64,000 nt of DNA from Escherichia coli (GTDB taxonomy: Bacteria; Pseudomonadota; Gammaproteobacteria; Enterobacterales; Enterobacteriaceae): the NCBI RefSeq assembly GCF_044324875.1, contig NZ_CP172185.1. The stretch is one strand, 5' to 3'. The notes under the pieces are model-generated. The model saw only the letters and a list, made by a program, of their open reading frames with translations, was not told the origin of the DNA and did not search any database. Of the stretch, positions 4,881 through 32,786 are shown piece by piece. Position numbers and translations under genes: made by a program. Every line of letters starts with the position of its first letter. Position 1 is the stretch's first letter.

Positions 4881-5789
4881 ATGAATACAGATACGTTTAT
4901 GTGCAGCAGCGACGAAAAACAGACCCGCAGCCCGCTGTCGCTGTATTCGGAATACCAGCGGATGGAGATTGAGTTTCGCGCACCGCATATCATGCCCACC
5001 AGCCACTGGCATGGCCAGGTCGAAGTGAATGTGCCTTTCGATGGCGATGTGGAATACCTGATCAACAATGGAAAAGTGAATATCAATCAGGGTCATATCA
5101 CGCTGTTCTGGGCCTGTACACCGCACCAACTAACAGATACAGGAACCTGTCAGAGCATGGCGATTTTTAATCTGCCGATGCATCTGTTTCTCTCCTGGCC
5201 GCTGGATAAAGACCTGATTAACCACGTCACTCACGGCATGGTGATCAAATCACTGGCCACACAGCAACTTAGCCCGTTTGAAGTGCGCCGCTGGCAGCAG
5301 GAATTGAACAGTCCGAACGAGCAAATTCGCCAGCTCGCCATTGATGAAATTGGCCTGATGCTCAAGCGATTTAGCCTCTCTGGCTGGGAACCGATTCTGG
5401 TCAATAAAACCTCGCGCACACACAAAAACAGCGTCTCGCGCCATGCGCAATTTTATGTTAGCCAGATGCTGGGCTTTATTGCCGAAAACTATGATCAGGC
5501 GCTGACCATCAACGATGTGGCTGAGCACGTCAAACTTAACGCCAACTATGCAATGGGGATATTCCAGCGGGTCATGCAATTGACGATGAAACAGTACATA
5601 ACCGCGATGCGCATCAACCACGTTCGCGCGTTACTGAGCGATACCGATAAAAGTATTCTCGATATTGCCCTGACGGCAGGCTTTCGTTCAAGTAGTCGTT
5701 TTTACAGCACGTTCGGCAAATATGTCGGCATGTCGCCGCAACAATACCGCAAACTTAGCCAACAGCGCCGCCAGACGTTTCCCGGCTAA
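4881..5789 (+). CDS. melR: AraC-family melibiose operon activator
   Basis: 302 aa; C-terminal AraC-type HTH region (…ITAMRINHVRALLSDTDKSILDIALTAGFRSSSRFYSTF…). Confidence 0.9.
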   Translation: MNTDTFMCSSDEKQTRSPLSLYSEYQRMEIEFRAPHIMPTSHWHGQVEVNVPFDGDVEYLINNGKVNINQGHITLFWACTPHQLTDTGTCQSMAIFNLPMHLFLSWPLDKDLINHVTHGMVIKSLATQQLSPFEVRRWQQELNSPNEQIRQLAIDEIGLMLKRFSLSGWEPILVNKTSRTHKNSVSRHAQFYVSQMLGFIAENYDQALTINDVAEHVKLNANYAMGIFQRVMQLTMKQYITAMRINHVRALLSDTDKSILDIALTAGFRSSSRFYSTFGKYVGMSPQQYRKLSQQRRQTFPG

Positions 5790-5984
5790 AGACGATATCA
5801 GTATCAGCCAAAAAAATAGTTTAGCCGTCGATAATAAGCAGTGAAAATAATTTAAAATAATCACATAACATATTGTTTATAAAAACAAATATTTCAAAAA
5901 TGTTTGTTTTTCACGCGCTTTACAGCCCGAAAAGGCCGGAAGATACTTGCCCGCAACGAAGATTCCTTCATAACCGGGTAAGCA

Positions 5985-19374: not shown

Positions 19375-19775
19375 AGAAAATTCTTCCTTAAAGCAAATTT
19401 TGTTACTTTTATTTAGCCAGATTGTTTTTGAGTTCTGTTTTCGGCTTTTATAATTACTGCAAGAAATAATTTTATATTTAGCGTGTTGTTTTTTATTAGA
19501 ATAAATAACGTCTTCCGATACGTTTAAAACGTCAGAAAGATAAAAATATCATTTGAATTAAAAAAAGAACAAGTAGAGCATTAACCTTATCTTAAATAAT
19601 AAATGGAGGCAAAAAGATTATTTTCTTTTTGCGTTTCCTTTCAAATGAAAACGATCGTCGTCTAAAATCAGCAGTACCCCCGACAAACTCAGGGATTTTG
19701 TGTATAATTGCGGCCTTTTTCGGCAATCTGCCGTTTTTTGGCGCTTTTGCCCTGCTGACTTTTGAGGAAATCCAC

Positions 19776-20111
19776 ATGTCATTACCACACTGCCCAAAAT
19801 GCAACTCCGAATACACCTACGAAGATAACGGCATGTACATCTGCCCGGAATGTGCCTACGAATGGAACGACGCAGAACCTGCACAGGAAAGCGACGAGCT
19901 GATCGTTAAAGATGCTAACGGCAATCTGCTGGCTGACGGCGACAGCGTTACCATCATTAAAGATCTGAAGGTGAAAGGTAGCTCTTCGATGCTGAAAATT
20001 GGCACCAAAGTGAAAAACATCCGCCTGGTTGAAGGCGACCATAACATCGATTGCAAAATCGACGGTTTTGGTCCGATGAAACTGAAATCTGAGTTTGTGA
20101 AAAAGAACTGA
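19776..20111 (+). CDS. phnA: PhnA-family zinc-ribbon protein
   Basis: 111 aa starting [30 protein letters not shown] (two CxxC pairs); ORF track's 160 aa version is an upstream extension. Confidence 0.9.
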
Positions 20112-20126
20112 TTGTATTGTGATCGG

Positions 20127-20215
20127 TAAGCCGGATAAGGCGCTCGCGCCGCATCCGGCAACGATGCCGACAGCCTGATGCGACGCTGACCGCGTCTTAT
20201 CAGGCTTCCCTCTCA
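20127..20215. repeat. BIME-type REP cluster between phnA and phnB
   Basis: Two inverted REP-like units (gccggataaggcgc… / …gcgtcttatcaggc). Confidence 0.6.
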
Positions 20216-20270
20216 TCTGTATAAATTTCGAACTACACTTAACTGGCTTCTCTTAACTGAGGTCACCATC

Positions 20271-20714
20271 ATGCCGTTAAGTCCCTACCTCTCTTTTGCC
20301 GGTAACTGTGCCGACGCAATTGCTTATTATCAACGTACGTTGGGCGCTGAACTGCTCTATAAAATCAGCTTCGGCGAAATGCCAAAATCAGCGCAGGACA
20401 GCGCCGAGAACTGCCCTTCCGGAATGCAATTTCCCGATACCGCCATCGCCCACGCCAATGTGCGCATTGCCGGAAGCGATATCATGATGAGCGATGCTAT
20501 ACCGTCAGGAAAAGCCAGCTACTCCGGCTTTACGCTGGTGCTCGATTCGCAACAGGTCGAAGAAGGAAAACGCTGGTTTGACAACCTTGCCGCTAACGGA
20601 AAAATCGAAATGGCCTGGCAGGAAACTTTCTGGGCGCATGGCTTCGGCAAAGTCACCGATAAATTTGGCGTACCGTGGATGATTAATGTCGTCAAACAAC
20701 AACCAACGCAATAA
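20271..20714 (+). CDS. phnB: PhnB, glyoxalase/VOC-fold protein
   Basis: 147 aa, recognised PhnB sequence (MPLSPYLSFAGNCADAIAYYQ…). Confidence 0.9.
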   Translation: MPLSPYLSFAGNCADAIAYYQRTLGAELLYKISFGEMPKSAQDSAENCPSGMQFPDTAIAHANVRIAGSDIMMSDAIPSGKASYSGFTLVLDSQQVEEGKRWFDNLAANGKIEMAWQETFWAHGFGKVTDKFGVPWMINVVKQQPTQ

Positions 20715-20769
20715 TCCGCCGGGAGGCCCGCCCTCCCGCACTGTCATCGAATTCCCGTTAACTCTTCAT

Positions 20770-20804
20770 CTGTTAGTCACTTTTAATTAACCAAATCGTC
20801 ACAA
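20770..20804 (+). promoter_or_regulatory. Candidate Pho box (PhoB binding) of the phnC promoter
   Basis: 11-bp periodic repeats tTAGTCAC tttt aATTAAC caaa TCGTCAC about 45-75 bp upstream of phnC, resembling the CTGTCAT-N4-CTGTCAT consensus; exact boundaries uncertain. Confidence 0.45.
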
Positions 20805-20846
20805 TAATCCGCCACGATGGAGCCACTTTTTTAGGGAGGCTGCATC

Positions 20847-21635
20847 ATGCAAACGATTATCCGTGTCGAGAAGCTCGCCAAAACCTTCAATCAGCATCAG
20901 GCGCTGCACGCGGTTGATCTGAACATTCATCACGGTGAAATGGTGGCTCTGCTTGGGCCGTCGGGTTCCGGCAAATCCACCCTTTTACGTCACTTAAGCG
21001 GTTTGATTACCGGCGATAAATCTGCCGGTAGCCATATTGAGCTGCTGGGCCGCACAGTCCAGCGCGAAGGCCGCCTGGCCCGCGATATCCGCAAAAGCCG
21101 CGCCAACACCGGCTACATCTTCCAACAATTCAACCTGGTGAATCGCCTGAGCGTACTGGAGAACGTGCTGATTGGCGCGCTCGGCAGCACGCCATTCTGG
21201 CGCACCTGTTTTAGCTACTTCACTCGCGAGCAGAAACAGCGCGCGTTACAGGCGCTGACCCGCGTTGGCATGGTGCACTTTGCCCATCAGCGCGTTTCCA
21301 CCCTCTCCGGCGGACAGCAGCAGCGTGTGGCGATTGCCCGTGCGCTGATGCAGCAGGCGAAGGTGATTCTGGCCGATGAACCCATCGCCTCGCTGGACCC
21401 GGAATCGGCGCGCATCGTGATGGACACCCTGCGCGACATTAACCAGAACGACGGCATTACCGTGGTCGTCACGCTGCATCAGGTGGATTACGCCCTGCGC
21501 TACTGCGAACGCATCGTCGCCCTGCGCCAGGGGCACGTCTTCTACGACGGCAGCAGCCAACAGTTTGATAACGAACGTTTTGACCATCTCTACCGCAGCA
21601 TCAACCGCGTCGAAGAAAACGCGAAAGCTGCCTGA
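20847..21635 (+). CDS. phnC: Phosphonate ABC transporter ATPase
   Basis: Walker [13 protein letters not shown] signature [15 protein letters not shown]. Confidence 0.95.
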
Positions 21636-21659
21636 CATCCCCATCATTGAGGAAAACGA

Positions 21660-22676
21660 ATGAACGCTAAGATAATTGCCTCGCTGGCCTTCACCAGCAT
21701 GTTCAGCCTCAGCACCCTGTTAAGCCCGGCGCACGCCGAAGAGCAGGAAAAGGCGCTGAATTTCGGCATTATTTCAACGGAATCACAGCAAAACCTGAAA
21801 CCGCAATGGACGCCGTTCTTACAGGATATGGAGAAGAAGCTGGGCGTAAAGGTCAACGCCTTCTTTGCCCCGGACTACGCGGGCATTATCCAGGGGATGC
21901 GCTTCAATAAAGTGGATATCGCCTGGTACGGCAATCTGTCGGCGATGGAAGCGGTGGATCGCGCCAACGGTCAGGTCTTCGCCCAGACGGTCGCGGCGGA
22001 TGGATCGCCGGGTTACTGGAGCGTGTTGATCGTCAACAAAGACAGTCCGATCAACAACCTGAACGATCTGCTGGCGAAGCGTAAAGATCTCACCTTCGGC
22101 AATGGCGATCCTAACTCCACCTCTGGCTTCCTCGTCCCCGACTACTACGTCTTCGCCAAAAACAATATCTCCGCCAGCGACTTCAAGCGCACCGTCAACG
22201 CCGGGCATGAAACCAACGCGCTGGCCGTCGCCAACAAGCAGGTGGATGTGGCGACCAACAACACCGAAAACCTCGACAAGCTGAAAACCTCCGCACCGGA
22301 GAAGCTCAAAGAACTGAAGGTGATCTGGAAATCGCCGCTGATCCCAGGCGATCCGATCGTCTGGCGCAAAAATCTGTCCGAAACCACCAAAGACAAGATC
22401 TACGACTTCTTTATGAACTACGGCAAGACGCCGGAAGAGAAAGCGGTGCTGGAGCGCCTGGGATGGGCCCCGTTCCGCGCCTCCAGCGACCTGCAACTGG
22501 TGCCGATTCGCCAACTCGCACTGTTTAAAGAGATGCAGGGCGTAAAAGGTAATAAAGGGCTGAATGAGCAGGACAAGCTGGCAAAAACCAGCGCCATTCA
22601 GGCGCAACTGGATGACCTGGACCGCCTGAACAACGCGTTAAGCGCGATGAGTTCGGTGAGTAAAGCGGTGCAGTAA
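21660..22676 (+). CDS. phnD: Phosphonate ABC transporter periplasmic binding protein
   Basis: 338 aa with N-terminal signal peptide; operon position. Confidence 0.95.
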   Translation: MNAKIIASLAFTSMFSLSTLLSPAHAEEQEKALNFGIISTESQQNLKPQWTPFLQDMEKKLGVKVNAFFAPDYAGIIQGMRFNKVDIAWYGNLSAMEAVDRANGQVFAQTVAADGSPGYWSVLIVNKDSPINNLNDLLAKRKDLTFGNGDPNSTSGFLVPDYYVFAKNNISASDFKRTVNAGHETNALAVANKQVDVATNNTENLDKLKTSAPEKLKELKVIWKSPLIPGDPIVWRKNLSETTKDKIYDFFMNYGKTPEEKAVLERLGWAPFRASSDLQLVPIRQLALFKEMQGVKGNKGLNEQDKLAKTSAIQAQLDDLDRLNNALSAMSSVSKAVQ

Positions 22677-22679
22677 ATC

Positions 22680-22768
22680 GTAAGTCGGATAAGACGCCAC
22701 GGCGTCGCATCCGACAATGTGCAGACGTTGATGCCGGATGCGGTGCAAGCACCTTATCCGGCCTACAG
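22680..22768. repeat. REP/BIME inside the phn operon (phnD-phnE spacer)
   Basis: gtcggataagacgc… / …gccggatgcggtg…ccttatccggcctac inverted REP units. Confidence 0.6.
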
Positions 22769-22781
22769 ACCGGAGCCAAAC

Positions 22782-23561
22782 ATGCAAACCATCACCATCG
22801 CCCCACCCAAGCGCAGCTGGTTCTCGCTTCTGAGCTGGGCCGTTGTTCTCGCCGTGCTGGTCGTCTCGTGGCAGGGCGCGGAAATGGCCCCGCTCACGCT
22901 GATTAAAGACGGCGGCAACATGGCAACCTTCGCCGCCGACTTCTTCCCGCCCGATTTCAGCCAGTGGCAGGATTACCTCACCGAAATGGCCGTCACGCTG
23001 CAAATCGCCGTCTGGGGCACCGCGCTGGCGGTGGTTCTCTCCATCCCCTTTGGCCTGATGAGCGCCGAAAACCTGGTGCCGTGGTGGGTTTACCAGCCCG
23101 TTCGCCGCCTGATGGACGCCTGCCGCGCCATTAACGAGATGGTCTTCGCCATGCTGTTCGTGGTCGCCGTCGGTCTCGGTCCGTTCGCTGGCGTACTGGC
23201 GCTGTTTATCCACACCACCGGCGTACTCTCCAAACTGCTTTCCGAAGCGGTAGAAGCAATTGAACCCGGCCCGGTGGAAGGTATTCGCGCCACCGGTGCC
23301 AACAAGCTCGAAGAGATCCTCTACGGCGTGCTGCCGCAGGTGATGCCGCTGCTGATCTCCTACTCCCTCTATCGCTTCGAATCCAACGTCCGTTCGGCCA
23401 CCGTTGTTGGCATGGTCGGCGCGGGCGGGATCGGCGTCACCCTGTGGGAAGCGATTCGCGGTTTCCAGTTCCAGCAAACCTGCGCCCTGATGGTGCTGAT
23501 TATCGTCACGGTCAGCCTGCTGGATTTCCTCTCTCAACGGTTGCGTAAGCACTTTATCTGA
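22782..23561 (+). CDS. phnE: Phosphonate ABC transporter permease, apparently intact
   Basis: Uninterrupted 259-codon frame from ATG 22782 with six predicted TM segments; ORF track's upstream extension runs into the REP element. Confidence 0.85.
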
Positions 23562-23581
23562 TAAGCGAGGCATTGATATCT

Positions 23582-24307
23582 ATGCACTTGTCTACACATC
23601 CGACCAGCTACCCAACACGCTATCAGGAGATAGCCGCAAAACTTGAGCAGGAGCTTCGTCAACACTACCGCTGCGGCGACTATCTTCCCGCCGAGCAGCA
23701 ACTGGCGGCGCGCTTTGAGGTGAACCGCCACACCCTGCGCCGCGCCATCGACCAACTGGTGGAAAAAGGCTGGGTACAGCGCCGTCAGGGCGTCGGCGTG
23801 CTGGTACTGATGCGCCCGTTCGATTACCCGCTCAACGCCCAGGCGCGTTTTAGCCAGAACCTGCTGGATCAGGGCAGCCATCCCACCAGCGAAAAACTGC
23901 TGTCGGTGCTGCGCCCGGCCTCCGGTCACGTCGCTGACGCGCTGGGGATAACCGAGGGCGAGAACGTTATCCACCTGCGCACCCTGCGTCGGGTCAACGG
24001 CGTCGCGCTCTGTTTAATCGACCACTACTTTGCGGATCTCACCCTCTGGCCGACGCTGCAACGCTTCGACAGCGGCTCGCTGCACGATTTTCTGCGCGAG
24101 CAAACGGGGATTGCGCTGCGCCGCAGCCAGACGCGGATCAGCGCCCGCCGCGCCCAGGCCAAAGAGTGCCAGCGTCTTGAAATCCCGAATATGTCGCCGC
24201 TGCTGTGCGTGCGCACCCTTAACCACCGTGACGGTGAAAGCAGCCCGGCGGAGTACTCCGTCAGCCTGACGCGCGCCGACATGATTGAATTCACTATGGA
24301 GCACTGA
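23582..24307 (+). CDS. phnF: GntR-family transcriptional repressor of the phn operon
   Basis: N-terminal GntR HTH, UTRA-like C-terminus; start set at ATG 23582. Confidence 0.9.
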   Translation: MHLSTHPTSYPTRYQEIAAKLEQELRQHYRCGDYLPAEQQLAARFEVNRHTLRRAIDQLVEKGWVQRRQGVGVLVLMRPFDYPLNAQARFSQNLLDQGSHPTSEKLLSVLRPASGHVADALGITEGENVIHLRTLRRVNGVALCLIDHYFADLTLWPTLQRFDSGSLHDFLREQTGIALRRSQTRISARRAQAKECQRLEIPNMSPLLCVRTLNHRDGESSPAEYSVSLTRADMIEFTMEH

Positions 24308-24760
24308 ATGCACGCAGATACCGCGACCCGCCAGCACTGGATGTCCATACTGGCACACAGCCAACCGGCTGAACTGGCAGCCCGCCTGAAGGCGCTGAAC
24401 ATCACTGCCGACTATGAAGTAATCCGCGCCGCTGAAACCGGCCTGGTGCAGATTCAGGCGCGGATGGGTGGCACCGGCGAACGCTTTTTTGCTGGCGACG
24501 CCACGCTCACCCGCGCCACCGTACGCCTGACTGACGGCACGCTCGGCTACAGCTGGGTGCTGGGGCGCGACAAACAGCACGCCGAACGCTGCGCGCTGAT
24601 TGACGCGCTGATGCAGCAAACCCGCCATTTTCAAAACTTATCAGAAACCCTTATTGCCCCGCTGGACGCTGACCGTATGGCACGCATTGCCGCACGCCAG
24701 GCCGAAGTGAACGCCAGCCGGGTCGACTTCTTTACGATGGTTCGCGGAGATAACGCATGA
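24308..24760 (+). CDS. phnG: C-P lyase core complex subunit
   Basis: 150 aa, operon position, translational coupling to phnF/phnH. Confidence 0.9.
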
Positions 24761-25341
24761 CCCTGGAAACCGCTTTTATGCTTCCTGTGCAGGATGCCCA
24801 GCACAGTTTTCGTCGCCTGTTAAAGGCCATGAGCGAGCCGGGCGTGATTGTCGCCCTGCATCAGCTCAAACGCGGCTGGCAGCCGCTGAATATCGCCACC
24901 ACCAGCGTGCTGCTGACGCTGGCCGATAACGACACGCCGGTGTGGCTTTCTGCGCCATTAAGTAACGATATCGTCAGCCAGAGCCTGCGTTTTCATACCA
25001 ACGCGCCGCTGGTCAATCAGCCGGAACTGGCGACCTTCGCGGTAACGGATGAGGCGATTTCCAGCGAACAGCTTAACGCCCTTTCCAGCGGCACCGCTGT
25101 TGCGCCAGAAGCGGGCGCGACGCTGATTTTACAGGTCGTCAGCCTGAGCGGCGGGCGCATGCTGCGCCTTACTGGCGCGGGTATTGCCGAAGAACGAATG
25201 ATCGCCCCGCAGCTGCCGGAGTGCATTCTGCACGAACTTACCGAGCGCCCGCACCCGTTCCCGCTCGGCATCGACCTGATCCTGACCTGCGGCGAGCGGC
25301 TGCTGGCTATCCCGCGAACCACTCATGTGGAGGTGTGCTGA
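24757..25341 (+). CDS. phnH: C-P lyase core complex subunit
   Basis: 194 aa; overlapping stops/starts with neighbours. Confidence 0.9.
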
Positions 25342-26405
25342 TGTACGTTGCCGTGAAAGGGGGCGAGAAGGCGATCGACGCCGCCCACGCCCTGCAAGAG
25401 AGCCGACGCCGGGGCAATACCGATTTGCCTGAACTGAGCGTCGCCCAGATTGAACAGCAGCTTAACCTCGCGGTAGATCGCGTGATGACCGAAGGCGGCA
25501 TTGCCGACCGCGAACTGGCGGCGCTGGCGCTGAAACAGGCCAGCGGCGATAACGTCGAAGCAATTTTCCTGCTGCGCGCCTACCGTACCACGCTGGCGAA
25601 GCTGGCGGTAAGCGAGCCGCTCGACACCACGGAGATGCGTCTCGAACGGCGTATTTCAGCGGTGTATAAAGATATTCCCGGCGGCCAGCTGCTTGGCCCA
25701 ACCTACGACTACACCCACCGCCTGCTCGATTTCACCCTGCTGGCAAACGGCGAAGCGCCGACGCTGACCACAGCCGACAGCGAACAACAGCCGTCGCCGC
25801 ACGTTTTCAGCCTGCTGGCGCGTCAGGGGCTGGCGAAGTTTGAAGAGGATAGCGGCGCACAGCCGGATGACATCACCCGCACGCCGCCGGTTTACCCCTG
25901 CTCACGCTCCTCCCGCCTGCAACAATTAATGCGCGGGGACGAAGGCTATTTGCTGGCGCTGGCCTACTCCACCCAGCGTGGTTACGGGCGCAATCACCCG
26001 TTCGCAGGCGAAATCCGCAGCGGCTATATCGACGTGTCGATTGTGCCGGAAGAGCTGGGATTTGCGGTGAACGTCGGCGAACTGCTGATGACCGAATGTG
26101 AAATGGTCAACGGTTTTATCGACCCGCCGGATGAGCCGCCGCACTTCACGCGCGGCTACGGGCTGGTGTTCGGCATGAGCGAGCGCAAAGCGATGGCGAT
26201 GGCGCTGGTTGACCGTGCGTTGCAGGCTCCGGAGTACGGCGAGCACGCGACAGGCCCGGCGCAGGATGAAGAGTTCGTGCTGGCGCATGCCGACAACGTC
26301 GAAGCCGCAGGCTTTGTCTCGCACCTCAAACTCCCCCACTACGTCGATTTCCAGGCCGAACTGGAGCTACTCAAACGTCTGCAACAGGAGCAGAACCATG
26401 GCTAA
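25341..26405 (+). CDS. phnI: C-P lyase core complex subunit (nucleosidase-like PhnI)
   Basis: 354 aa from ATG 25341 ([13 protein letters not shown]…). Confidence 0.9.
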   Translation: MYVAVKGGEKAIDAAHALQESRRRGNTDLPELSVAQIEQQLNLAVDRVMTEGGIADRELAALALKQASGDNVEAIFLLRAYRTTLAKLAVSEPLDTTEMRLERRISAVYKDIPGGQLLGPTYDYTHRLLDFTLLANGEAPTLTTADSEQQPSPHVFSLLARQGLAKFEEDSGAQPDDITRTPPVYPCSRSSRLQQLMRGDEGYLLALAYSTQRGYGRNHPFAGEIRSGYIDVSIVPEELGFAVNVGELLMTECEMVNGFIDPPDEPPHFTRGYGLVFGMSERKAMAMALVDRALQAPEYGEHATGPAQDEEFVLAHADNVEAAGFVSHLKLPHYVDFQAELELLKRLQQEQNHG

Positions 26406-27243
26406 TCTGAGCGGCTACAACTTTGCTTACCTCGACGAGCAGACCAAACGCATGATCCGCCGCGCCATCTTAAAAGCGGTGGCGATCCCCGGTTATCAGG
26501 TGCCGTTTGGCGGGCGCGAGATGCCGATGCCGTACGGCTGGGGAACCGGCGGCATACAGCTTACCGCCAGCGTGATTGGCGAAAGCGATGTGCTGAAGGT
26601 GATTGACCAGGGCGCGGATGACACCACCAACGCCGTGTCGATTCGCAACTTCTTTAAGCGCGTGACCGGGGTAAACACCACTGAACGTACGGACGATGCG
26701 ACGCTTATCCAGACGCGCCACCGCATCCCCGAAACGCCGCTGACCGAAGATCAGATCATTATTTTCCAGGTGCCGATCCCGGAACCGCTGCGCTTTATCG
26801 AGCCGCGCGAAACGGAGACCCGCACTATGCACGCGCTGGAGGAGTACGGCGTGATGCAGGTGAAACTGTATGAAGATATCGCCCGCTTCGGTCATATCGC
26901 CACCACCTATGCCTATCCGGTGAAGGTGAACGGGCGCTACGTGATGGACCCGTCGCCGATCCCGAAATTCGATAACCCAAAAATGGACATGATGCCCGCC
27001 CTGCAGCTGTTCGGCGCAGGACGCGAGAAGCGCATCTATGCGGTGCCGCCGTTTACCCGCGTGGAAAGCCTCGATTTCGACGATCACCCGTTCACCGTTC
27101 AACAGTGGGATGAGCCGTGCGCCATCTGCGGATCGACCCACAGCTATCTCGACGAAGTGGTACTGGATGACGCCGGAAACCGCATGTTTGTCTGCTCCGA
27201 TACCGATTATTGCCGCCAACAGAGCGAGGCGAAAAGCCAATGA
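26398..27243 (+). CDS. phnJ: C-P lyase catalytic subunit (radical SAM-like, Cys-rich C-terminus)
   Basis: 281 aa from ATG 26398 (MANLSGYNFAYLDEQTKR…); C-terminal CxxCxxxxxC-type cysteine cluster (CAICGSTHSYLDEVVLDDAGNRMFVCSDTDYC). Confidence 0.9.
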   Translation: MANLSGYNFAYLDEQTKRMIRRAILKAVAIPGYQVPFGGREMPMPYGWGTGGIQLTASVIGESDVLKVIDQGADDTTNAVSIRNFFKRVTGVNTTERTDDATLIQTRHRIPETPLTEDQIIIFQVPIPEPLRFIEPRETETRTMHALEEYGVMQVKLYEDIARFGHIATTYAYPVKVNGRYVMDPSPIPKFDNPKMDMMPALQLFGAGREKRIYAVPPFTRVESLDFDDHPFTVQQWDEPCAICGSTHSYLDEVVLDDAGNRMFVCSDTDYCRQQSEAKSQ

Positions 27244-27998
27244 ATCAACCGTTACTTTCGGTCAATAACCTGACCCACCTTTACGCGCCGGGCAAAGGCT
27301 TTAGCGATGTTTCTTTTGATTTATGGCCGGGGGAAGTGCTGGGCATCGTCGGGGAATCCGGCTCCGGGAAGACCACGCTGCTGAAATCAATCTCCGCGCG
27401 CCTGACGCCGCAGCAGGGGGAGATTCGCTATGAAAACCGCTCCCTCTATGGCATGAGCGAAGCCGACCGCCGCCGTTTACTGCGCACCGAATGGGGCGTG
27501 GTACATCAGCATCCGCTCGACGGCCTGCGCCGCCAGGTGTCGGCAGGCGGCAATATCGGCGAGCGGCTGATGGCGACCGGGGCGCGTCATTACGGCGACA
27601 TCCGCGCCACCGCGCAGAAGTGGCTGGAAGAGGTGGAGATTCCCGCCAACCGGATCGACGACCTGCCGACCACCTTTTCCGGCGGCATGCAGCAACGTTT
27701 GCAGATTGCCCGCAACCTGGTGACGCATCCGAAGCTGGTGTTTATGGACGAACCAACCGGCGGGCTGGATGTGTCGGTGCAGGCGCGCCTGCTCGACCTG
27801 CTGCGCGGCCTGGTGGTGGAGCTGAACCTGGCGGTGGTGATTGTCACCCACGATTTAGGCGTCGCCCGCCTGCTGGCGGACCGTTTGCTGGTGATGAAGC
27901 AGGGGCAAGTAGTGGAGAGTGGGTTAACCGACCGCGTGCTCGACGACCCTCACCATCCATATACCCAGCTGCTGGTGTCATCGGTTTTGCAGAATTGA
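27240..27998 (+). CDS. phnK: C-P lyase associated ABC-type ATPase
   Basis: Walker [10 protein letters not shown], signature FSGGMQQR; start ATG overlaps phnJ stop (ATGA). Confidence 0.9.
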
Positions 27999-28003
27999 GC
28001 CAG

Positions 28004-28088
28004 TGCCGGATACGGCGTAAACGCCTTATCCGGCCGACAAATGCGCTCCCCGTAGGTCGGATAAGACGCGTCAGCGTCGCATCCGACA
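28004..28088. repeat. REP/BIME inside the phn operon (phnK-phnL spacer)
   Basis: gccggatacggcgtaaacgccttatccggcc … gtcggataagacgcgtcagcgtcgcatccgac. Confidence 0.6.
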
Positions 28089-28108
28089 CCCGAACCACGA
28101 GGCGAAAA

Positions 28109-28789
28109 ATGATTAACGTACAAAACGTCAGTAAAACCTTCATCCTGCACCAGCAAAACGGCGTGCGCCTGCCCGTCTTACAACGTGCCTCGCTCACCGT
28201 CAACGCAGGCGAATGCGTGGTGCTTCACGGCCACTCCGGCAGCGGAAAATCAACCCTGCTGCGCTCGCTGTACGCCAACTATCTGCCCGATGAAGGTCAA
28301 ATCCAGATCAAACACGGTGATGAGTGGGTAGACCTGATCACCGCGCCAGCCCGCAAAGTGGTGGAGATCCGCAAAACCACCATCGGCTGGGTGAGCCAGT
28401 TTCTGCGCGTCATCCCGCGTATTTCGGCACTGGAAGTGGTGATGCAGCCTCTGCTCGATACCGGCGTACCGCGTGAAGCCTGCGCCGCTAAAGCCGCCCG
28501 ATTACTGACGCGCCTGAACGTGCCTGAACGCCTGTGGCACCTGGCACCATCGACCTTCTCCGGCGGCGAACAGCAGCGCGTCAACATCGCCCGTGGCTTT
28601 ATCGTCGACTATCCGATTCTGCTGCTGGATGAACCCACCGCCTCGCTGGACGCTAAAAACAGCGCCGCGGTGGTGGAACTCATTCGCGAAGCCAAAGCCC
28701 GTGGCGCGGCCATCGTCGGTATCTTCCATGACGAAGCCGTACGCAATGACGTCGCCGACCGCCTGCACCCGATGGGAGCCTCTTCATGA
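28109..28789 (+). CDS. phnL: C-P lyase associated ABC-type ATPase
   Basis: 226 aa from ATG 28109 ([11 protein letters not shown]…), Walker [10 protein letters not shown]. Confidence 0.9.
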
Positions 28790-29922
28790 TTATCAATAAC
28801 GTCAAACTGGTGCTGGAAAACGAAGTGGTGCACGGTTCACTGGAGGTGCAGGATGGCGAAATCCGCGCCTTTGCCGAAAGCCAGAGCCGCCAGCCGGAAG
28901 CGATGGACGGCGAAGGTGGCTGGCTACTGCCCGGACTGATTGAGCTGCATACCGACAACCTCGATAAATTCTTCACCCCGCGCCCGAAAGTTGACTGGCC
29001 TGCCCACTCGGCGATGAGCAGCCACGACGCGCTGATGGTGGCAAGCGGCATCACCACCGTACTGGACGCGGTGGCGATTGGCGACGTGCGCGACGGCGGC
29101 GATCGGCTGGAGAATCTGGAGAAGATGATCAACGCCATCGAAGAGACGCAGAAACGCGGCGTCAACCGCGCCGAGCACCGCCTGCACCTGCGCTGCGAAC
29201 TGCCGCACCACACCACGTTGCCGCTGTTTGAAAAACTGGTGCAGCGCGAACCTGTGACGCTGGTATCGCTGATGGACCACTCGCCAGGCCAGCGCCAGTT
29301 CGCCAATCGCGAGAAGTATCGCGAATATTATCAGGGCAAATATTCCCTCACCGATGCGCAGATGCAGCAGTACGAAGAAGAGCAATTGGCGCTCGCCGCA
29401 CGCTGGTCGCAGCCAAATCGCGAAACCATCGCCGCAATGTGCCGCGCGCGATACATTGCGCTCGCCAGCCACGATGACGCCACGCACGCCCACGTTGCCG
29501 AATCCCACCAGCTTGGCAGCGTGATTGCCGAATTTCCCACCACGTTCGAAGCGGCAGAAGCCTCGCGCAAGCATGGCATGAACGTGCTGATGGGCGCGCC
29601 GAATATCGTGCGCGGCGGTTCGCACTCCGGCAACGTGGCGGCCAGTGAACTGGCGCAGCTTGGCCTGCTGGATATCCTCTCTTCCGACTACTACCCCGCC
29701 AGCCTGCTCGATGCGGCATTTCGCGTCGCCGATGACGAGAGCAACCGCTTTACGCTGCCGCAGGCGGTGAAGCTGGTGACTAAAAATCCGGCGCAGGCGC
29801 TTAATCTTCAGGATCGCGGAGTGATTGGCGAGGGCAAACGCGCCGACCTGGTGCTGGCGCATCGCAAGGGCAACCACATTCATATCGACCACGTCTGGCG
29901 TCAGGGTAAAAGGGTGTTCTGA
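28786..29922 (+). CDS. phnM: Amidohydrolase-fold PhnM (ribosyl-triphosphate 1-phosphonate diphosphohydrolase)
   Basis: 378 aa; metal-binding HTDN motif near N-terminus. Confidence 0.9.
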
Positions 29923-30479
29923 TGACGGGAAAACTGATTTGGTTAATGGGGGCCTCTGGCTCCGGAAAAGACAGTCTGTTGACGGAACTTCGCCAGCGGG
30001 AACAAACTCAGCTACTGGTAGCGCATCGCTACATCACGCGCGCCGCCAGCGCCGGAAGTGAAAACCATATCGCCCTGAGCGAGCAGGAGTTTTTTACCCG
30101 CGCGGGGCAGAACCTTCTGGCCTTAAGCTGGCACGCTAACGGTCTGTATTATGGCGTCGGCGTCGAGATTGACCTCTGGCTGCACGCCGGATTCGACGTG
30201 CTGGTCAACGGCTCACGCGCGCATTTGCCGCAGGCACGGGCGCGCTATCAATCGGCGCTGTTGCCCGTTTGTTTACAGGTTTCGCCGGAGATCCTGCGCC
30301 AGCGCCTGGAAAACCGTGGTCGTGAAAATGCCAGTGAAATTAACGCCCGACTGGCACGCGCTGCCCGCTATACTCCTCAGGATTGTCTTACGCTCAATAA
30401 TGACGGCAGCCTGCGCCAGTCGGTCGACAAGCTGCTGACGCTGATTCATCAGAAGGAGAAACACCATGCCTGCTTGTGA
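29922..30479 (+). CDS. phnN: Ribose 1,5-bisphosphate phosphokinase
   Basis: 185 aa; P-loop GASGSGKDS. Confidence 0.9.
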
Positions 30480-30900
30480 GCTTCGCCCGGCTACGCAGTA
30501 CGACACCGACGCAGTTTACGCGCTGATTTGTGAGCTAAAACAGGCGGAGTTTGACCACCACGCGTTTCGCGTGGGCTTTAACGCCAACCTGCGCGACCCA
30601 AACATGCGCTACCATCTGGCGCTACTGGATGGCGAAGTTGTCGGCATGATCGGCCTGCATTTGCAGTTTCATCTGCATCATGTCAACTGGATCGGCGAAA
30701 TTCAGGAACTGGTGGTGATGCCGCAGGCGCGCGGTCTGAACATCGGCAGTAAATTACTGGCATGGGCAGAAGAAGAAGCCCGCCAGGCCGGGGCCGAAAT
30801 GACCGAGCTTTCGACCAACGTGAAGCGCCACGACGCGCACCGTTTCTATCTGCGCGAAGGCTACGAGCAGAGCCATTTCCGCTTCACCAAGGCGCTGTAA
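30466..30900 (+). CDS. phnO: GNAT aminoalkylphosphonate N-acetyltransferase
   Basis: 144 aa GNAT fold (…[26 protein letters not shown]…). Confidence 0.9.
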
Positions 30901-30901
30901 C

Positions 30902-31660
30902 ATGAGCCTGACCCTCACACTTACTGGCACTGGCGGCGCACAGGGCGTTCCCGCATGGGGCTGTGAGTGCGCGGCCTGCGCCAGAGCGCGGCGCTCACCG
31001 CAGTATCGCCGCCAGCCATGCAGCGGCGTCGTGAAGTTTAACGACGCGATCACCCTGATCGACGCCGGGCTGCACGATCTCGCCGATCGCTGGTCGCCCG
31101 GATCGTTCCAGCAGTTTTTGCTGACGCACTACCATATGGATCACGTGCAGGGGCTGTTTCCGCTGCGCTGGGGCGTGGGCGATTCGATCCCGGTCTACGG
31201 CCCGCCGGATGAACAGGGCTGCGACGATCTGTTTAAACATCCGGGCCTGCTTGATTTCAGCCACACGGTGGAACCGTTTGTAGTGTTTGATTTGCAGGGA
31301 TTACAGGTCACGCCGCTGCCGCTCAATCATTCGAAACTCACTTTCGGCTATTTACTGGAAACGGCACATAGCCGGGTGGCGTGGCTGTCTGACACCGCAG
31401 GCCTGCCGGAAAAAACGCTGAAATTTTTACGCAATAATCAGCCACAGGTAATGGTGATTGATTGCAGCCACCCACCGCGCGAGGATGCACCGCGTAATCA
31501 CTGTGATTTAAATACCGTGCTTGCGCTGAATCAGGTTATCCGCTCGCCACGGGTGATTCTGACCCATATCAGCCACCAGTTTGATGCGTGGCTGATGGAA
31601 AACGCACTGCCGTCGGGGTTTGAGGCGGGGTTTGATGGGATGGAGATTGGGGTGGCGTGA
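30902..31660 (+). CDS. phnP: Metallo-beta-lactamase-fold phosphodiesterase
   Basis: 252 aa; HYHMDH metal-binding motif. Confidence 0.9.
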
Positions 31661-31682
31661 TGGGAGGGAATGTGCGCGCTGG

Positions 31683-31797
31683 CCCCCTCACCCTAACCCT
31701 CTCCCCAGAGGGGCGAGGGGACCGATTGTGCTCGATATTGAATATTGCGCTGGTTTTCTCCCTCGCCCCATTGGGGAGAGGGCCGGGGTGAGAGGCG
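31683..31797. repeat. GC-rich composite inverted repeat (boxC-like) between convergent phnP and yjdP
   Basis: Arm A ccccctcaccctaaccctctccccagaggggcgagggga (31683-31721) and arm B tctccctcgccccattggggagagggccggggtgagagg (31757-31797) are near reverse complements, separated by about 35 bp containing a short AT palindrome. Confidence 0.5.
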
Positions 31798-31818
31798 ATG
31801 CCTGCTCCATACCCAACA

Positions 31819-32148
31819 TCAACGCCCATACTCATCTTCCATTCTCCGCTCTTCATCTTCTAGCTGCCGACGCTCCTGATCCAGCTGGCGCTGGCGATCG
31901 TCCAGCTGCCTGCGGCGATCTTCAAACTGGCGGCGGCGATCGTCATATTGTCTGCGCCGATCGTCGTTCACTTCACGCTGCCAGCCGTCGTCGCGCGAAT
32001 CTTCATAGTCTCGCCCACGGTCAGGGTTATAAGCGTCGTTAATCGCCTGCTGAATATTGCCAATGGTGTCGTCGATAATATCGGCCTGGGCCGGAACGGT
32101 GGACAGCGTGAGCAGGGTGAATAAAAGAAATAGCGGAAAGCGTTTCAT
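31819..32148 (-). CDS. yjdP: Small secreted protein YjdP with periodic acidic/basic repeats
   Basis: 109 aa; N-terminal signal peptide MKRFPLFLLFTLLTLSTVPAQA followed by repeats of the DDRRRQ type; degenerate 24-bp DNA periodicity visible. Confidence 0.8.
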   Translation of the reverse strand: MKRFPLFLLFTLLTLSTVPAQADIIDDTIGNIQQAINDAYNPDRGRDYEDSRDDGWQREVNDDRRRQYDDRRRQFEDRRRQLDDRQRQLDQERRQLEDEERRMEDEYGR

Positions 32149-32216
32149 TAGCCAACCTCAAAAAGAAACTCTATCCACATTAGTCATTACTCATCCATGC
32201 AAGTAGTGGATGAATC

Positions 32217-32534
32217 TCAATTTCTCCGCTGCTCTATTGCCGTAATCGCCTCCACGCGTTGTTGATGACGACCGCCTTCGTACTGCGCGCCCAGCCACGC
32301 ATCCACAATCATTTTTGCCAGTTCGAGGCCAACCACTCGTGAACCAAAAGCCAGTGCAACTTCACTGGCGTAATGCGGATAATCAGTACGCTCTGACGAC
32401 CTGGTTTCTTTATCAATCCCCTCACTCATTGACCATGAATAAAAGGCTGGCACAGCAACGCAGAATCCTGCGGTGCCAGCGACATGACCGCCCATTGCTC
32501 CGGTACGTTTTTTAATAAAAAACACCGGTTGCAT
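32217..32534 (-). pseudogene. rpiB: Truncated ribose-5-phosphate isomerase B remnant
   Basis: C-terminal ~46 residues (AFGSRVVGLELAKMIVDAWLGAQYEGGRHQQRVEAITAIEQRRN) and the SSERTDYPHYAS segment match RpiB as I recall it, but the central catalytic region (ICGTGVG… block) is missing and the N-terminal 40 residues are not recognisable. Confidence 0.6.
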
Positions 32535-32786
32535 TGATTAATTGTGCTCAGTATTTGCCGAAGTACAATATATATAATAAATATATAAAACACCTCATAT
32601 TATTTACAGAGATAATAAATTCGCGTACTTTTCCCTCTTCAGCACAAATGCCTAATAAAATGGCTCGCTCCGCTCACACTTCCACTTATTAAAGTCGCAA
32701 ATTCCCAATTATGATAACGCCAGCTTTAAATGACGTATTTTGCATGGATTACATATTTACGACACAAATGATAAATGGAGATTTAT

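Follow-up and report, generated by a model that had tools for sequence, protein, structure and literature searches.

The phnE gene at positions 22782-23561 of the window (by which we mean the whole stretch of 64,000 nucleotides of Escherichia coli DNA that was analysed) is very probably an ordinary functional allele with two copies of an eight-base repeat, lying in a complete phn operon, and judging from its sequence the strain is predicted to be phosphonate-proficient (Phn+). This prediction rests on four observations taken together: all 14 genes of the operon are intact, the PhnE protein is identical to that of K-12 once the K-12 frame is restored, loss of the same 8 bp activates the system in K-12 (PMC6469041), and the region upstream of phnC is K-12-like.

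The phnE reading frame is uninterrupted

The first-pass annotation had claimed that the phnE frame runs unbroken from the ATG at 22782 to a stop at 23559-23561. Translation of the plus strand confirmed this in full, giving 259 sense codons with no internal stop, closed by a TGA at those last three positions. In the mechanical list of open reading frames the same frame stays open further upstream, to a GTG at 22719, which would make a protein of 280 amino acids. We rejected this start, as the extension enters a REP element, and we prefer ATG 22782 also because a GGAG is found 7-10 nt ahead of it and because RefSeq uses the same ATG for phnE both in K-12 and in the 100%-identical locus of TUM1886.

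The frame is not a chance open reading frame, as can be seen from its family matches and from its base composition. The protein matches the NCBIfam equivalog model TIGR01097 for the permease PhnE at 311.5 bits (cut-off 216.7, E=4e-93) over profile positions 8-251 of 252, and the Pfam domain PF00528 (BPD_transp_1) at 91.8 bits over residues 88-258, while the GC content at the three codon positions is 62/42/79%. Moreover, the adjoining phnC (ATPase) and phnD (binding protein) both score above their own equivalog cut-offs. At the level of sequence, the gene thus has the features of the PhnE family and does not have those of the cryptic K-12 allele. Transport of phosphonates (and of Pi or phosphite) in vivo would be expected from the identity of this protein with the active PhnE of the K-12 revertant in PMC6469041.

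An ATG-initiated frame of 311 amino acids on the opposite strand (22638-23573, minus) spans all of phnE. We do not consider it a gene, since the GC3-rich sense frame (GC3 79%) most likely accounts for it.

A sequence search of a PDB copy found no structure of PhnE, and only distant matches to MetI and to amino-acid permeases were returned. The nearest was MetI (E=6e-6, residues 125-254), a weak but significant match. MetI, the permease of the type I ABC importer MetNI (PDB 3dhw/6cvl), has the BPD_transp_1 domain in common with PhnE, whereas its substrate and binding protein are different from those of PhnE.

Two octamers are present in the window and three in K-12

We aligned the window gene with the phnE locus of K-12 MG1655 (788 nt, annotated in RefSeq as a frameshifted pseudogene), and the sole length difference between the two was one 8-bp block. 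At gene positions 406-429 K-12 has three octamer copies, GCTGGCGT GCTGGCGT GCTGGCGC, whereas the window has only two, GCTGGCGT ACTGGCGC. The alignment therefore upholds the earlier claim that the 8-bp duplication of K-12 is absent here, the GCTGGCGT unit being counted three times in K-12 and twice in the window. When 8 bp are removed from the K-12 gene, the resulting protein is identical to the window PhnE at 259 of 259 residues. The two genes have a nucleotide identity of 95.7%, and the 26 base differences between them are synonymous without exception (0 non-synonymous), a pattern which indicates purifying selection. In the window haplotype the second octamer begins with A in place of G, a synonymous change (GTG>GTA, Val), and the two units agree at 6/8 positions, against 7/8 in the GCTGGCGT-GCTGGCGC arrangement.

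Read in frame, the K-12 gene gives a product of 189 residues, of which the first 140 are native. Downstream of the shift, at residues 155-185 of the intact PhnE, there is an EAA-like segment, found with a relaxed pattern only, as the strict textbook EAA pattern gave no match to PhnE. By comparison with the family, this segment probably represents the cytoplasmic EAA-type loop. In transporter permeases of this kind, such a loop couples the permease to the ATPase. The K-12 product is without this segment and without the C-terminal hydrophobic segment. It may thus be proposed that in K-12 the third octamer, by shifting the frame after residue 140, would cost the protein both the EAA-type loop (about 155-185) and the C-terminal membrane segments.

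The cryptic state of phnE in K-12 is attributed to Makino et al. 1991 and Iqbal et al. 2004, as cited in PMC6469041, and in the latter work K-12 gains an active PhnCDE when precisely GCTGGCGT (positions 407-414) is lost. The window gene and the cryptic gene have in common the gene itself, its locus, the repeat site at gene position 406 and the nucleotide identity given above, but they differ in the extra GCTGGCGT, in the frame shift and in the shortened product which lacks the EAA-type loop. Compared with phnE+ alleles of E. coli, on the other hand (E. coli B, K-12 Phn+ revertants, and WP_001193500.1 in TUM1886), no substantive difference was seen: the operon position and the neighbours are the same, the window DNA is 100% identical to that of TUM1886, and the window haplotype has GTA for Val in the second octamer. 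A two-octamer phnE is a known allele of a well-studied gene and operon, and it is the usual, ordinary state in E. coli.

The operon from phnC to phnP is complete

Gene boundaries were taken from the TUM1886 annotation and each was verified in the window (Table 1). All 14 phn genes have a start, a stop and no internal stop, their lengths are exactly those of K-12 and their order is colinear, which agrees with the earlier description of phnCDEFGHIJKLMNOP as complete (14/14 frames uninterrupted). Nucleotide identity to K-12 ranges from 93.3 to 97.3% per gene, and the 13 genes besides phnE have 352 codons with synonymous and 51 with non-synonymous differences. The junctions between genes are the usual overlaps, abutments or short gaps, and the long spacers are those after phnD (105 nt) and after phnK (110 nt). 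The latter (27999-28108) is equally long in K-12, and an Rfam search of it gave zero matches at the gathering threshold. PhnJ keeps Gly32 and Cys241/244/266/272 (5/5 residues); according to the PhnJ literature, Gly32 is the catalytic glycyl-radical site, and the four cysteines belong to the catalytic residues as well.

Table 1. Features of the phn region and their positions in the window
Feature	Coordinates	Strand	Description
yjdN-phnC intergenic region with phnC promoter	20715..20846	+	compared with K-12
phnC	20847..21635	+	importer ATP-binding subunit, 262 aa; K-12 length, 4 aa differences; NF007438 606 bits; TIGR02315 348 bits
phnD	21660..22676	+	periplasmic phosphonate-binding protein, 338 aa; 4 aa differences vs K-12; TIGR03431 376 bits
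REP-type palindromic element, phnD-phnE spacer	22683..22763	-	Rfam naRNA4 RF02564, 64.6 bits (gathering score 59.5)
phnE	22782..23561	+	membrane permease of the phosphonate ABC importer, 259 codons; DNA 100% identical to TUM1886 phnE
octamer tract GCTGGCGT-ACTGGCGC, two copies	23187..23202	+	codons 136-141 (AGVLAL); site of the third copy in K-12
phnF	23582..24307	+	GntR-type operon repressor, 241 aa; protein identical to K-12, 20 synonymous differences
phnG	24308..24760	+	C-P lyase core subunit, 150 aa; intact, K-12 length
phnH	24757..25341	+	C-P lyase core subunit, 194 aa; intact
phnI	25341..26405	+	ribosyl-methylphosphonate triphosphate synthase subunit, 354 aa; intact
phnJ	26398..27243	+	radical-SAM C-P bond-cleaving enzyme, 281 aa; intact, 2 aa differences vs K-12
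phnK	27240..27998	+	ABC-type ATPase subunit of the C-P lyase complex, 252 aa; intact
phnL	28109..28789	+	ABC-type ATPase subunit, 226 aa; intact
phnM	28786..29922	+	ribosyl-methylphosphonate triphosphate diphosphatase, 378 aa; intact
phnN	29922..30479	+	ribose 1,5-bisphosphokinase, 185 aa; intact
phnO	30466..30900	+	aminoalkylphosphonate N-acetyltransferase, 144 aa; intact
phnP	30902..31660	+	phosphoribosyl cyclic phosphodiesterase, 252 aa; intact

The phnC upstream region is K-12-like

The 147 bases upstream of phnC match K-12 but for one base, which adjoins the yjdN stop (160/161 aligned bases). They include CTGTTAGTCACTTTTAATTAACCAAATCGTCAC (about 20770-20802), which we take to be the putative PhoB-binding Pho box. 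The assignment of a Pho box upstream of phnC reportedly goes back to Makino et al. in 1991. A Pho-regulated promoter upstream of phnC is thus recognized by the match to the K-12 sequence, with PhoB binding as a prediction.

The REP-type element of the phnD-phnE spacer is found in K-12 as well, where it matches naRNA4 at 69.1 bits. Situated just upstream of phnE, it could have an effect on the stability or polarity of the operon mRNA. Another element of this type was seen in the yjdM-yjdN spacer (window 20112-20270), which has a single naRNA4/REP325-type unit (match at 20129-20206, plus strand, 85.5 bits). The corresponding K-12 spacer has six tandem naRNA4 units with a 100-bp period (positions 5314-5890 of the fetched K-12 locus), and this one-versus-six difference accounts for the length difference of ~500 bp between the window and K-12.

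The strain is predicted to use phosphonates

The roles of PhoB, PhnD, PhnCDE, the lyase, PhnO and PhnF are well established for the Pho regulon and the C-P lyase pathway, and the following course of events would be expected in the strain. Upon phosphate starvation PhoB would activate the phnC promoter, PhnD would capture alkyl- and aminoalkyl-phosphonates in the periplasm, and a PhnE dimer (PhnE2-PhnC2), energised by PhnC, would carry them across the membrane. PhnI (with PhnG, PhnH and PhnL), PhnM, PhnJ, PhnP and PhnN would then process them by way of ribosyl-phosphonate intermediates, with cleavage of the C-P bond and formation of PRPP, while PhnO would acetylate aminoalkylphosphonates and PhnF would repress the operon. 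Since phnE of the window bears no frameshift damage of the K-12 type, we predict a Phn+ phenotype for the strain. The phosphonate-proficient genotype which the first-pass annotation had foreseen therefore seems a reasonable prediction, considering that PhnE equals the frame-restored K-12 protein at 259/259 residues and that the region upstream of phnC is one base off K-12.

It could be argued that the operon is intact on paper and yet silent or defective in vivo, due to a missense difference or to a regulatory defect located outside the window. On one hand, the 51 substitutions relative to K-12 include non-conservative changes (PhnC W124Y and G127R, PhnD G161D, PhnI G98E and G264D), and the regulators phoB, phoR and pstSCAB-phoU do sit outside the window. 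On the other hand, the ratio of synonymous to non-synonymous differences (352:51 in the 13 genes, 26:0 in phnE) is what would be expected under selection, zero frameshifts or stops are present, the promoter region matches K-12, and thousands of genomes have intact annotated orthologues. We thus find a silent or defective operon very unlikely, and a functional operon remains our preferred reading.

The three-copy frameshift is a natural polymorphism

As estimated from identity-band counts and sampled rows, ~81% of the 5,394 complete E. coli records have two octamer copies in phnE, ~19% have three and a single one has four. A K-12 probe of 144 nt, with the tract in its middle, found 1,009 of these records at an identity of at least 95%, and these make up the three-copy class. 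The other records matched at 80-95%, and the rows sampled among them were 134-136 bp long (two-copy length), with the exception of one four-copy record. When a 136-nt probe was taken from the window for the converse search, 1,010 records fell in the 80-90% band, where sampled rows span 144 bp. The counts from the two probes agree (1,009 vs 1,010). In E. coli YZ22PE244 four octamer copies are present at gene position 406, and its phnE is annotated as frameshifted.

Three-copy phnE is commonly presented as a trait of K-12, which the census does not bear out, as the ~19% of complete E. coli records with three copies comprise, apart from laboratory strains, isolates from human, chicken, duck, pig, milk and river water. 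In a systematic sample, 5/5 matches spanning 909 bp (three-copy length) were 96.2-96.3% identical to the window, the same as K-12, which suggests that the three-copy form rides mainly on a K-12-like haplotype. The window haplotype itself is shared, at an identity of at least 99% over 136 nt, by ~389/5,337 records. When a third copy was added artificially to this haplotype and the resulting 144 nt served as probe, no record among the 5,337 reached at least 99%, and the best one stood at 95.1%.

These counts bear on the idea that the tract truly has three copies and was collapsed to two in sequencing or assembly, in which case the real gene would be frameshifted. Short tandem repeats are open to miscalls, and the natural copy number may be 2, 3 or 4; nevertheless, a tract of 16-24 bp is trivial for any read technology, two copies are the majority state, the three-copy form of the window haplotype is missing from the records as described above, and TUM1886 independently has the identical allele. 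The probability of such a collapse is therefore next to nil, and we continue to read the tract as a genuine two-copy one.

ON/OFF phase variation of phnE has been described for K-12. As to the features on which it would depend, the tract is present and occurs in 2, 3 or 4 copies across genomes, and in the window its units match at only 6/8 bases. One might speculate that the G>A change in the second octamer (GCTGGCGT-ACTGGCGC vs GCTGGCGT-GCTGGCGC) weakens slippage, and that the haplotype would in consequence be "locked-ON", with ON/OFF phase variation largely lost, but we consider this rather unlikely. The missing three-copy version of the window haplotype is compatible with reduced slippage, and equally with clonal inheritance and selection.

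The window does not come from K-12

Judged by sequence, the window is not K-12, as follows from the divergence of 3-7% per phn gene, the 26 synonymous differences in phnE and the absence of als. The first-pass annotation had stated that the phnE frame confirms an origin outside the K-12 laboratory lineage. The conclusion holds on account of the divergence and of als, but the state of phnE is no proof of it, as K-12 returns readily to two-copy phnE (PMC6469041). Since the three-copy allele is naturally common and K-12 reverts, the state of phnE is a poor lineage marker in both directions. The notion that the window is a K-12 derivative which became phnE+ by losing one octamer may be discarded altogether: two-copy revertants of this kind do arise easily, but none of them would explain 26 synonymous differences in phnE, an identity to K-12 of 93-97% in the other phn genes, the lack of the als operon with a truncated rpiB, and one naRNA4 unit in place of six.

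The alsRBACEK genes (the D-allose operon, located in K-12 between rpiB and yjcS) are absent, as seen at window positions 32217-32534 (minus strand) and at the junction that runs up to yjcS at 32775. The rpiB remnant in the window encodes 105 amino acids; it has lost 53 aa internally, and its N-terminus is different. This als-less junction is a common structural variant, given that it was found at a coverage of at least 80% in 1,568/5,405 complete E. coli genomes.

Relative to TUM1886, the window shows 0-4 differences per 500 bp at about 22000-25000 and 2-5% at 25500-31500. Over the full length of the 13-kb phn region (19500-32600), none of 5,426 complete E. coli genomes exceeded 98.2% identity. 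For the flanks of the region the best identity was 99.2% and 98.6% (the segments compared being 13.1-24.4 kb). From these comparisons the phn region looks mosaic; either the source lineage has no close representative among the complete genomes searched, or the phn region is recombinant.

Significance of the two-octamer allele

The phnE finding matters little beyond correct annotation. With phnE intact, the strain would be expected to import phosphonates and to use them as a phosphorus source. PhnCDE also takes up orthophosphate (PMC6469041), and the same would be expected of a strain with an intact phnE. In addition, a preprint (10.1101/2019.12.23.887760) proposes PhnCDE as a further way into the cell for fosfomycin, a phosphonate antibiotic, and if PhnCDE does admit this compound, phnE status could modestly affect fosfomycin susceptibility. 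What the survey adds is that the three-copy "K-12" frameshift is a natural polymorphism, carried by about one complete E. coli genome in five.
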